From: Candidatus Adlerbacteria bacterium
Lineage (GTDB): Bacteria; Patescibacteriota; Minisyncoccia; Phycocordibacterales; SBAW01
Direction: 5' to 3'
Length of the DNA stretch: 64,000 nucleotides
NCBI GenBank assembly: GCA_037135035.1
Contig: JBAXLB010000001.1
Span: 94,465 to 158,464 of the forward strand
Shown: positions 17,060 through 23,911 of the stretch, piece by piece
How the letters are laid out: each line of letters opens with the position of its first letter
How positions within the stretch are numbered: position 1 is the first letter of the stretch
The notes under the pieces: generated by a model
What the model was told of the DNA's origin: nothing
Seen by the model: the letters and a program-made list of their open reading frames with translations, nothing else
Databases searched by the model: none
Program-made: the position numbers and the translations under genes

Positions 17060-20000
17060 ATGCGTGAACAAAAGTTCTTCGGCCGCTTCCGCGCACCCCG
17101 CACCGAGACTCCAAACCTCGTAGCGGCGCAAGTCGACTCTTTCTCCCTTCTTTTAAAAGAAGGAGTGAAGGAAATTTTTAAAGAGTTCACACCTATTAAA
17201 GACTACTCCGGCAAAAAGTTTGACCTGGAGTTTGTAAAAATCGAACTCGGCGAGCCAAAGTACGACGAGCATTACGCAAAAGCACAAAAGATGTCGCTCG
17301 ACATCCCGCTCCGCGCAATTGTCCGTTTGAAGAACAAAGCACAGGGCACAGAAAAAGAGCAGGAGATTTTCCTTGCGGACTTTCCTGTGATGACCGAACA
17401 CGGCACCTTCGTTATCAACGGAGTTGAACGTGTTATCGTCCCACAACTCGCACGCTCATACGGCGTGTTTTTTACCGCTGACGAAGTAAAGGGTAAGCGC
17501 CACTTCGGTGCTAAAGTGATCCCAGCCCGCGGCGCATGGATAGAAATTGAGGCAGATGCCGACGGCATGCTCCAAGTGCGCATTGACCGCAAGCGCAAAT
17601 TCCCCGCAACATCACTGCTCCGTGTTCTTGGTGCCCACACCGACGCTGACATCAAGGCACTCTTTAAGTCTGAACATGGCAAGACATGGGCAGCGCTTTC
17701 TATCGAAAAAGACCCTGCTAAAAACTTAGACGACGCCTATGTCGAAATCCACAAGCGCCTCCGCGACGGCGACTTGGCAACAGCTGCAAACGCCCGCGAA
17801 TATATCAACTCTATTTTTAGCGAAGAACGCTACGACCTTTCCCGTGTTGGCCGTTACCGCTTTAACCAGCGCTTTGGCAAGTCGCTCGATGAAAAAGACT
17901 TAGGCCGCAAAACCTTGTCGCTTGAAGACGTTGCGATGGTGCTCGACCATGTGTTGACGCTCGAAAACGACCCGGAAGCGATGGAAGACAACATCGACCA
18001 CCTTGGCTCCCGCCGTGTCCGTTACGTTGGCGAAATGTTGCAGCAGCGCCTCCGTGTTGGTTTGACCCACATGAAGCGCAACATCCAGGACCGCATGTCG
18101 ACTATCGACACCGACGCAACGATGCCACAGCAGTTTGTAAACCCACGCCCGCTGCAGGCACGTATTAAAGAATTTTTCACCACCAACCAGCTTGCGCAGT
18201 TCATGCAGCAAACGAACGCGCTTGAAGAACTCGAGCACTTGCGCACACTTTCAGCACTTGGCCCGGGAGGTCTAACTCGCGAACGCGCAGGCTTTGAAGT
18301 CCGTGACGTGCATCCGTCCCACTACGGCCGCCTCTGCCCAATTCACACTCCAGAAGGCCCCAACATCGGCCTTATTTTGCGTCTCTCAACATTCGCACGC
18401 GTCAACGAGTTCGGCATGATCGAAACACCGTATGTAAAAGTTGCAAATGGTAAGGTGACTGGCGAAGTTGTGTTCTTAAACGCAGCTGAGGAAGAAAAAC
18501 AGATCATCGCGCACGGTGCCACAAAAGTTGAAGACAACGGACAGATTACGGAAGACATGGTTGAAGTCCGCTTGAGCGGCGCCCCAACCCGCGTACCAAA
18601 AAAGGAAGTTAACTACATCGACGTCGACCCAGCACAGCCATTTTCTATCGCGACATCGATGATCCCGTTCTTGGAACACGACGACGCAAACCGCTCGCTC
18701 ATGGGTTCGAACATGCAGAAGCAAGCAACGCCTGTTATCTTGCCCGAGGCACCGCTTGTCGCAACCGGTATGGAGGAACGCGCTGCGCGTGACACCGGCC
18801 GCCTTATTGTTGCAAAAGAAGAAGGTGTCGTGGTGCAAGCAGACGGCAAGCGGATCATTGTTAAAAATGCAAAAGGTAAAGACCTCGAGTATCCACTTGT
18901 TAACTTTGTCCGCACCAACGGCTTTACCATGTTGCATGGTCGCCCGGCAGTTTCTGTTGGAACAAAAGTAAAGAAAGGCGATTTGCTTGCAGACACTTCA
19001 AGCTCTGCAGACGGCCAGCTCGCACTTGGACAGAACGCGCTCGTTGCGTTTATGTGCTGGTCGGGTGCCAACTACGAAGACGCAATTATCATTTCTGAGC
19101 GTCTCGTAAAAGACGGCAAGTTCTCGTCGGTACATATTGAAGAGTTCGTCTGCAACGTACGTGACACAAAACTTGGACCCGAAGAAACAACCCACGACAT
19201 CCCGAACGTATCTGAAACAAAACTCCGCAACTTGGACGAAGACGGTATTATCCGCACTGGTTCGGAAGTCCGCCCTGGCGACATCCTTGTTGGTAAAATT
19301 ACTCCAAAAGGGGAAACTCAGCTCACACCAGAAGAGCGTCTGTTGCGTTCTATCTTCGGCGACAAAGCTCGCGATGTTAAAGACTCGAGCTTGCGCATGG
19401 AAAACGGCAAGCGTGGCCGCATCATCAGCGTTAAAGTATTCTCACGTGAAGCAGGACACCACTTGGAGTCCGGCATCATTAAGCGCATCCATATTGAAAT
19501 TGCACAGCTCCGCACAGTGTCAGTCGGCGACAAACTCGCAGGCCGCCACGGAAACAAGGGTGTTATTTCGCGCATCTTGCCTGAAGAAGACATGCCATAC
19601 ATGGCAGACGGTCGCCCAGTTGACGTCATTTTGACACCGCTCGGTGTGCCAAGCCGTATGAACTTGGGGCAGATTTTGGAACTCCACTTGGGGCTTGCTG
19701 CAAACACACTTAACTACCAGGCAATCTGCCCACCGTTTGCAGGTGCAACAGAAGTTGAAATCCGCCAGGAACTTAAAAAAGCTGGCTTTAACGAAAACGG
19801 AAAAATAAAACTCTACGACGGCCGCACCGGCGAGGCGTACGAGCAGGACATTGCCGTTGGGTACATGTACATCTTGAAACTTCACCACATGGTAGAAGAC
19901 AAGATCCACATGCGCTCTATCGGACCGTACTCTCTTATTACCCAGCAGCCACTCGGCGGCAAAGCACAAGGCGGTGGCCAACGCTTTGGAGAAATGGAAG

Positions 20001-23000: not shown

Positions 23001-23911
23001 CACTCGGCGAAGCTGTAGGTACCGTTGCCGCACAAGCAATCGGCGAGCCAGGTACGCAGTTGACGATGAACACAAAACACGCCGGAGGTGCAGCAAGTGT
23101 TGGAGGCGACATCACACAAGGTTTGCCTCGTGTTGAAGAAATCTTCGAACGCCGTATGCCTCGCAACCCAGCCGTTGTTGCAACAGTGTCTGGCCATGTG
23201 ACTGAAATTAGAAACGACCAAAAAGAAAAAGTTATTGTTATTGCTCCAGACCTCGAGTACCGCACGAAGAGCAAAAAAGAGTTTATCGAATACTCGGCAC
23301 ACGTACGCCGCGTACCGACTGTCAAAGTTGGCGACCCAGTTACCAAGGGTCAGTTGTTGACCGACGGTTCGGCCGACCTTTCGGAGCTCTTCAAGTACGC
23401 GGGCAAAGAACGCGCGCAGGAATATATCATCAGCGAAATTGTAAAAATCTACGAACTCCAGGGTGCAAGTATCTCTATCAAGCACTTGGAAACAATTATC
23501 CGCCAGATGTTTAGCCGTTTGCGTGTGACAAGCTCGGGCGGAACAGAACTTTCTGTGGGTGATGTTGCAAACGAAAGCGACTTGAACGCTGCAAACGTAG
23601 TAGCTACAGAGGCAGGTGGCGATGAGGCAAAAGGCGAGCCGCTTGTCATGGGTATTTTGGATGTCTCGCTGTCACGCCAGAGCTTCCTCTCTGCGGCATC
23701 GTTCCAAAACACAACCCGTATGCTTATCAAAGCGTCGATGTACGGTAGTGTCGACAAACTCGAAGGCTTGAAGGAAAACGTTATCATCGGTCGGCTTATC
23801 CCTGCAGGTACTGGATTTAAGGGTTCTCCAAAAGAAAAATTGGTCAATCGCTACGCCCCAGGCACCGGCGAGCAAGCAGCACCGATAGTTAAAAAAGAAG
23901 AAGTACTGTAA
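17060..23911 (+). CDS. rpoBC: Fused DNA-directed RNA polymerase beta-beta' subunit (rpoB-rpoC single ORF, 2283 aa).
   Basis: The N-terminal ~1090 aa are RpoB, ending at the conserved [13 protein letters not shown]...SDDIMGRS region. They continue without a stop through a ~35-aa linker into the RpoC N-terminus (zinc finger CYCGKY...CEKCGV, NADFDGD catalytic motif). Confidence 0.9.
   Translation: [2283 protein letters not shown]

Follow-up and report, generated by a model that had tools for sequence, protein, structure and literature searches.

Does this bacterium make RNA polymerase's two largest subunits, β and β', from one gene, or does a continuous reading frame conceal two separate ones? 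The question is raised by a stretch of 64,000 nucleotides (nt) of contig JBAXLB010000001.1 (positions 94,465 to 158,464; assembly GCA_037135035.1), hereafter the window, from Candidatus Adlerbacteria, an ultra-small bacterium of the Patescibacteria. On its forward strand rpoB and rpoC run together as a single open reading frame (ORF), rpoBC, at 17060..23911 including the stop codon (all coordinates are those of the window unless a relative's locus is named). The best explanation of the locus as a whole is, with good confidence, a genuine β-β' gene fusion that would yield tethered, intact RNA polymerase subunits.

The fused rpoBC gene

The rpoBC ORF begins with ATG and encodes 2283 amino acids (aa), with a product of about 250 kDa as predicted from the ORF list and the translation; its assignment also draws on Pfam, NCBIfam and more than 100 fused homologues. 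The initial annotation had reported a single 2283-aa rpoB-rpoC ORF here, and its coordinates are exact and every peptide that it quoted is present in the translation. Pfam places RpoB domains (aa 19-1046) and then RpoC domains (aa 1065-2160) in one frame. The gene has the general form of a fused β-β' gene, one ORF with neither stop nor frameshift between the subunits. Recoding and an alternative genetic code were considered and rejected, as the ORF has no in-frame stop under translation table 11.

The β portion (aa 1-1049; 17060..20206, + strand) carries the Pfam Rpb2 domains 1, 2, 3, 45, 6 and 7 at aa 19-1046, and the motifs HGNKG (aa 830-834) and GEMEVWAL (aa 977-984). It is recognized as RpoB by NF001616 (aa 6-1046; 1435 bits, cut-off 896) and also by TIGR02013 (1420 bits, cut-off 801). 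The β' portion (aa 1064-2283; 20249..23908, + strand) has the Rpb1 domains 1-5 at aa 1065-2160 and is recognized as RpoC by TIGR02386 (aa 1069-2255; 1466 bits, cut-off 963.5). Its functional elements include a zinc finger formed by C1119, C1121, C1134 and C1137 (CxCx12CxxC, aa 1119-1137, nt 20414-20470), the catalytic NADFDGD motif (aa 1552-1558, nt 21713-21733) and an uninterrupted trigger loop without an SI3-type insertion (aa 2005-2030, nt 23072-23149), all on the + strand. The zinc finger, initially placed where the linker runs into RpoC, does belong to RpoC but sits 55 residues inside it. Blocks of 112, 113 and 51 aa in β and trigger-loop blocks of 46 and 143 aa in β' that the Burkholderia subunits possess are missing from the fused protein, which agrees with an earlier remark that the fusion is compact.

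A sub-threshold Pfam match to Peptidase_M23 lies inside β' (aa 2033-2100, window 23156-23359; 22.8 bits against 28.7). We take this to be most likely the sandwich-barrel hybrid motif fold common with LytM-type domains, and not a peptidase.

Junction and linker

Homology to RpoB ends with ...LDVELMRSG at aa 1049 (nt 20206), and the conserved RpoC N-terminus, which presumably matches EEFDAIKIALASPD of E. coli, begins at aa 1064 (nt 20249). The linker proper is 14 aa long (aa 1050-1063; 20207..20248, + strand). These boundaries follow from RpoB/RpoC homology and from alignments to Protein Data Bank (PDB) chains: when aa 901-1233 were compared with the sequences of every PDB chain, β alignments ended at aa 1045-1059 and β' alignments began at aa 1054-1068. 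The length of about 35 aa first given for the linker has to be revised, because conserved terminal parts of both subunits had been counted in it. None of the 60 best PDB chains covers both halves, and since a fused chain would top the ranking, no natural fused β-β' protein has apparently been solved.

The DNA around the junction (20040-20460) contains no stop, frameshift or homopolymer of 7 or more bases, and its other two frames are rich in stops. The linker consists of a variable half, SALTNA, and a conserved half, RKTPGAEV. It aligns to the starts of the separate rpoC products of a sister lineage (MNSNYKNPGAE and MSTYKNTQPE), with T1055 (codon ACA) at the position of the ancestral rpoC ATG. 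Judging from this alignment, SALTNA appears to be a remnant of the old β C-terminal tail and RKTPGAEV the old β' N-terminal tail.

Conservation among relatives

A homologue search of approximately 5.8 billion protein clusters returned 8000 matches, of which the best 109 were inspected. All 109 are of the fused type with both sets of domains, and their identities lie between 42% and 88%. Six of them are fragments cut short (1340-2133 aa), and most have their full length (2190-3135 aa). NCBI, ENA, JGI and Logan are the sources, with independent assemblies and contigs of up to 774 kb, and those with names are Candidatus Paceibacterota or Patescibacteria. The junction is read through in 87 of 87 representatives of the window's clade (76-88% identity), and also in fused lineages at 50-65%. 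The segment from D-V-E-L to D-F-D measures 17-24 aa in all 87, most often 19 (63/87); Gly, Ala, Arg, Ser and Pro account for 58% of its residues, and aromatic residues and Cys are nearly absent. The sequence RKTPGAE is exact in 46 of the 87, with close, conservative variants in most others. The initial annotation had proposed comparing this junction in related genomes: the fusion is common to all 87 of the closest representatives, and no set of relatives with uniformly separate genes was found. Its view that the fusion is genuine holds on both counts, the junction showing no sign of artefact either.

In the seven close clusters that were opened there is no separate β (approximately 1050 aa) or β' (approximately 1230 aa), only full-length fused proteins or short fragments at contig ends. 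A control search with the N-terminal 500 aa of β' is a partial control, its matches all being 874 aa or shorter. It gave one match above 78% identity (P0335, 90%), which crosses the fused junction with ...NSRKTPGAEASDFD..., the linker of the clade. Of the other 119 matches (78% or less), 112 begin with their own Met 20-70 aa before PETINYR and are therefore separate rpoC genes; the groups named among the 119 include Kaiserbacteria, Zambryskibacteria and Nomurabacteria. The best 600 rows of a scan of the junction across GTDB species, all at 68% identity or below and favouring loci with a shared rpoB/rpoC frame, missed the window's own clade and yielded unfused comparators and one fused genome (L008).

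Evolution at the codon level was followed by aligning the DNA of five clade members with the window and counting pairwise synonymous and nonsynonymous differences. The ratio is 414:97 in the β C-terminal flank, 23:86 in the variable half of the linker, 40:33 in RKTPGAE and 372:61 in the β' N-terminal flank. Linker indels in the six genomes comprise whole codons only, and no stops occur. This pattern, together with the whole-codon indels, indicates strong purifying selection on the flanking domains and a linker that is translated and, as a tether, only loosely constrained. The codon at the ancestral rpoC ATG is ACA, ATC, CGC, CGC or deleted, so that the start codon is gone in all six. The fusion is a trait of the clade and not a peculiarity of this genome.

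Origin of the fusion in a sister lineage

How such a gene can arise is visible in a cluster at 90% identity (P0088), 65% identical to the window, which mixes fused proteins (2282 and 2296 aa) with separate ones (β of 1083 and 1077 aa, β' of 1234 aa). Its contigs, L081-L084 among them, keep the gene order of the window, rpsP-KH-trmD-rpoB(-)rpoC-dnaG-rpoD. In three independent unfused contigs (L082 at 8141-8395, L083 and L084) rpoB ends with ...KNI-TAA, followed by an 11-nt spacer (tcaccatcaac) and the rpoC start ATG-AGC-ACC-TAC-AAA-AAC. The fused contig (L081, 4376-4580) differs by a deletion of approximately 50 nt, in which the β tail, stop and spacer are lost and the old ATG stays in frame (...KKKK-M-NSNYKNPGAETDQFE...). 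By this comparison L081 appears to be a recent fusion seen at nucleotide resolution. Other unfused Patescibacteria (L001-L007) have a stop, a spacer of 12-150 nt and an ATG at the same place.

In the same lineage, a 1234-aa β' entry (P0138) has the same sequence as the C-terminal portion of a 2296-aa fused ORF, which suggests that some annotation pipelines may split a fused rpoBC at the internal ATG. The two contigs measure 18,422 and 18,424 nt, respectively (P0138 and P0139, that is MEK7175782.1 and MEK7227719.1, compared with P0141 and P0146).

For the window we propose a deletion of this kind. In an ancestor of its Paceibacteria/Patescibacteria clade, a short deletion would have taken the end of rpoB, the stop and a spacer of about 10-150 nt, after which rpoB would read straight into rpoC. 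The product would be one polypeptide of about 250 kDa, with the β C-terminus tied to the β' N-terminus by a probably flexible tether, about 14 aa long, in which Gly, Ala, Arg, Ser and Pro abound and which derives from the former terminal tails of both subunits. As the modules of both subunits are intact, it would be expected to form an ordinary bacterial core with α2 and σ. The tether would enforce synthesis of β and β' at 1:1 and make their association intramolecular.

Phylogeny and number of events

The distribution of the fusion was examined on a neighbour-joining (NJ), not maximum likelihood, tree of concatenated β and β' (50 taxa, 2146 columns, 100 bootstraps), for which sampling was limited. 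Patescibacteria are monophyletic (bootstrap 100), and the window's clade is entirely fused (100). Its sister group (78) comprises unfused Nomurabacteria, Zambryskiibacteriota and L003, and includes a pair of fused P0088 and unfused L082 (100). Within the same clade as the window, the basal positions belong to fused P0089 and unfused L001 (100). Fused P0090 falls in the other half of the tree, as do a pair of unfused L005 and fused P0099 (100) and a large clade that is fused throughout (100) and includes the GTDB genome L008. Fitch parsimony on the NJ tree requires at least five fusion or fission changes, or six if only fusions are allowed. From one fused clade to another the linkers vary, in sequence and also in length.

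The frequency of the arrangement was estimated by searching aa 551-1650 against 1.84 billion representatives at 50% identity. Among the best 150 of 37,271 matches, approximately 24 are of fused length, as judged by length and matched region. The β-β' fusion, as sampled in these sequences, appears to be uncommon but sporadically recurrent across bacteria.

Several public entries in these comparisons are probably mislabelled. In the tree, the place of P0097 ('Anaplasmataceae', 384-kb contig) and of L009 ('Gammaproteobacteria') is within Patescibacteria, and L003 and L005, entered as 'Saccharibacteria', group with sequences of the Paceibacteria type. P0335, entered as 'Chthoniobacterales', shares 90% identity with the window and has the linker of its clade. 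The Anaplasmataceae label of P0097 may come from likeness to the fused Wolbachia protein.

Alternative explanations

An assembly or sequencing artefact, in which an indel error erased a real stop or frameshift between truly separate genes, would be easy to imagine at this locus: in many bacteria rpoB lies next to rpoC, sometimes in a common frame, and one error could mimic a fusion. We regard it as scarcely credible, because the junction has no homopolymer or low-complexity tract, 87 independently assembled clade members share the read-through with a linker of constant length, and no trace of a stop, a spacer or a start codon is left in a segment that evolves as translated sequence. It is also conceivable, and very unlikely, that the ORF is fused and still gives two polypeptides, by internal initiation near the junction or by proteolysis in the linker. 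The linker looks exposed and is rich in Gly, Ser, Pro, Arg and Lys, so that it could be accessible to proteases, and an in-frame ATG (M1046) lies four codons before it. The missing Shine-Dalgarno sequence is weak evidence against internal initiation, since unfused relatives also have no obvious one before rpoC. Against two products, the ancestral rpoC start is lost in 6/6 clade members examined, and M1046 is replaced elsewhere in the clade by L, T, Q, A or V. The H. pylori fusion is reportedly made as one polypeptide (Zakharova 1998). Some points weigh against a genuine fusion giving one active product. The existence, activity and non-cleavage of the 250-kDa polypeptide are predicted from sequence, and that sequence is an assembled, metagenome-type one, a point that also counts towards an artefact. 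The census of the clade is a large sample of relatives and not an exhaustive one. An AlphaFold2 model of a 328-aa junction fragment from a 12-sequence alignment (mean pLDDT 41, pTM 0.24) is too poor for linker geometry, and the conserved RKTPGAE half is constrained, so a purely passive tether may oversimplify.

Granted a genuine fusion, its history and value can be read in more than one way. A single ancient fusion basal to a large Paceibacteria group, with several secondary fissions, needs five parsimony changes with reversals against six by fusions only, and fission should not be lethal in principle, as split β and β' are said to be viable in H. pylori. We consider it unlikely: a fission needs a new stop, spacer and start codon to appear together, the tails in unfused lineages are ordinary and look ancestral while their spacers are of various lengths, and linker length and sequence differ among fused clades. 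The sole event seen at nucleotide resolution is, besides, a simple deletion that makes a fusion, with the old ATG in frame. Recurrent fusion is the likelier reading of these sequences, because of that deletion mechanism and because the linkers of fused clades are unrelated. Whether fusion was adaptive, securing the stoichiometry or assembly of RNA polymerase in ultra-small cells with reduced genomes, for example where chaperone or omega function is reduced, and giving RKTPGAE a role, seems to us rather doubtful. Fusions are indeed found repeatedly in lineages with small genomes or a dependence on hosts (several Patescibacteria clades, Mycoplasma wenyonii with 650 kb, Wolbachia, Helicobacter), and in the window's clade the fused state is fixed across 76-88% identity with RKTPGAE conserved. 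Against this, many equally small Patescibacteria have separate genes, contigs of 3.5-4.1 Mb can carry fused proteins as well, and RKTPGAE is conserved in the separate β' of the sister lineage as well and therefore predates the fusion. The fusion is probably nearly neutral or only mildly advantageous, since a fused E. coli enzyme (Severinov 1997) and a split H. pylori enzyme (Raudonikiene 1999) both reportedly function; repeated origin is then understandable. A broader suggestion, which we offer tentatively as possible though not probable, is that fusion is a recurrent convergent trait of reduced-genome bacteria, with at least five events in Patescibacteria besides those of hemoplasmas, Wolbachia and Helicobacteraceae, and that one Paceibacteria clade fixed it with a conserved linker.

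Probable transcription unit and neighbourhood

The fused gene is preceded by RNase R (- strand), rpsP, a KH-domain protein and trmD, and followed by dnaG, rpoD and a PD-(D/E)XK nuclease. It is detached from the rplKAJL context, and the order found at 12455-28515 is kept across the clade and the sister lineage, with the genes for core polymerase, primase and primary sigma factor adjoining one another. Between trmD and rpoBC are two small ORFs on the + strand, one for a 40-aa Lys-rich peptide (16384-16506) with a Shine-Dalgarno-like GGGAGAG upstream and one for a 57-aa zinc-ribbon-like protein with CxC...CxxC (16562-16735). At the same site the sister loci have a stretch of only 164-215 nt with no called genes.

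A strong hairpin with a T-run (16747..16790, + strand; fold of -29.4 kcal/mol, z-score -4.4) would end the upstream unit of trmD and the two small ORFs. It is followed by a promoter-like sequence, TTGACT-16 nt-TATACT (16810..16837, + strand), which scores 10/12 in a consensus scan and is the probable rpoBC promoter; TTGAC and GTATACT/GTACAAT recur at fixed spacing (TTGAC-N17-GTATACT) in 6/6 clade members aligned. The 5' leader (16845..17059, + strand, approximately 215 nt) has blocks conserved in the alignment of six relatives, the window and L085-L089: CGAAACA, GAGTGAGTT, GTTTCAAAACAA and ATAGTGG...CCAC. Across these six the leader measures about 215-275 nt, and a GC hairpin with a T-run lies about 70-130 nt before the rpoBC ATG (approximately 16960-16991 in the window, + strand). 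By its position, analogous to that of the E. coli rplL-rpoB attenuator, this hairpin may be an attenuator of rpoBC. Its covariation is weak, two of the four predicted pairs showing compensatory changes in the six sequences, and we make no claim of a riboregulator; an Rfam search of the gap upstream of rpoBC gave only sub-threshold, chance-level matches. In all five clade relatives a gene-free stretch of at least 290 nt lies ahead of rpoBC. Directly after the stop codon comes an intrinsic terminator (23922..23957, + strand), with an A-run, the stem CCCGCCCU...AGGGCGGG and a U-run, which was detected by folding (-26.7 kcal/mol, z-score -6.2) and missed by a simple pattern scan. With what look like its own promoter, leader and flanking terminators, rpoBC resembles a self-contained transcription unit.

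Other features of the window

Three further RNA features were identified. A tRNA gene with a group I intron in its anticodon loop lies at 58189-58484 on the - strand (Rfam RF00028, 79 bits). Spliced in silico, it folds into a clean cloverleaf, either tRNA-Thr(UGU) or tRNA-Asn(GUU), and both splice registers fit the rule that the 5' exon ends with U and the intron with G. A permuted, two-piece, alpha-type tmRNA is found at 8306-8629 on the - strand (RF01849, 111 bits, overlapping RF04321 tmRNA_permuted, 76 bits). ARAGORN found no tRNA in the whole 64 kb, missing the intron-bearing gene, and did not report the permuted tmRNA. The LOOT RNA motif (RF03000) is present at 54167-54282 on the + strand as a full-length match of 79 bits against a gathering score of 46.4.

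Significance

As β-β' fusions are known already and work in nature as well as in the laboratory, the understanding of transcription is unchanged by this locus, and its interest is modest, mainly evolutionary and practical. The rpoBC fusion, a rare genomic change and easy to score, is a marker for a Paceibacteria clade. A fusion supposed to be rare appears to have arisen repeatedly in Patescibacteria, with one event caught as a 50-nt deletion. There is also a gap in annotation, in that public databases give proteins of approximately 2280 aa the name 'beta'' and some records may divide the fused ORF into separate calls; hidden fusions can skew marker-gene phylogenies and estimates of completeness in which rpoB and rpoC are taken to be separate genes. 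If fusion were indeed a convergent trait of reduced genomes, it would point to selection for a simplified, stoichiometric assembly of RNA polymerase in ultra-small cells, a trait hidden at present by pipelines that name the proteins just 'subunit beta''. The tethered enzyme of about 250 kDa, with few insertions, could serve as a minimal bacterial RNA polymerase for structural work.

Comparison with known systems

The initial annotation described fused subunits as uncommon and known in Helicobacter and Wolbachia, and the literature bears this out. A natural β-β' fusion is documented in Helicobacter/Wolinella, where it is called a rare genetic event and used as a clade marker, and in Wolbachia, and a synthetic fusion of the E. 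coli subunits is reported as functional. In the full-text literature, with most subscription journals outside the scope, no description of an rpoB-rpoC fusion in Patescibacteria or the Candidate Phyla Radiation (CPR) was found.

The closest parallel in design is RpoBC of Helicobacter and Wolinella (NF007172 / PRK09603, approximately 2890 aa; Zakharova et al. 1998, 1999), which also has β followed by β', a short C-to-N tether and a distribution at clade level. The Helicobacter-type model aligns continuously over the junction of the window (aa 890-2014), but the score of 2078.7 bits lies far below the cut-off of 5372, and the window protein comes from a different phylum, is of independent origin and has an unrelated linker sequence. 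It is some 600 aa shorter because it is without the proteobacterial lineage-specific insertions. The Wolbachia protein (NF011417 / PRK14844, approximately 2839 aa) is likewise a natural fusion, in a small-genome, host-dependent organism, but has an alphaproteobacterial architecture with insertions and an independent origin; its model scores 1974.8 bits against a cut-off of 4632. The window protein is thus a member of neither curated family of fused proteins in NCBIfam. Since the ordinary rpoB and rpoC models are passed and both fused models failed, databases name the window protein only 'subunit beta''. The engineered E. coli fusion (Severinov et al.) is an artificial construct of a large, insertion-rich proteobacterial enzyme and not a natural lineage; by analogy with its assembly and activity, the product of the window would be expected to work.

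The same architecture is found in Mycoplasma wenyonii (WP_014849752.1, 2648 aa, 650-kb genome; 'Multifunctional fusion protein' in UniRef) and in a metagenome-assembled genome of Deltaproteobacteria (MDR1577725.1, 2846 aa). Both proteins are 40-50% identical to the window's, longer and from other phyla, and apparently represent independent events. Together with proteins of 3132-3135 aa on contigs of 3.5-4.1 Mb, they are instances of fused β-β' beyond the textbook cases (P0156, P0334 and P0105-P0109).

Nearest outside the fused clade are the separate rpoB and rpoC of Zambryskibacteria, Nomurabacteria and Kaiserbacteria (L001-L004 and L082; 57-78% identity). These neighbouring Paceibacteria have the same compact subunits but keep the rpoB stop, a spacer of 12-150 nt and the rpoC ATG. 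The window's clade nests among such unfused relatives within Patescibacteria (bootstrap 100), and the large fused proteins of other phyla branch elsewhere in the tree, which argues against common descent with the Helicobacter or Wolbachia fusion. The fusion in the window arose, on this phylogeny, independently of both and is a further example of a known arrangement.

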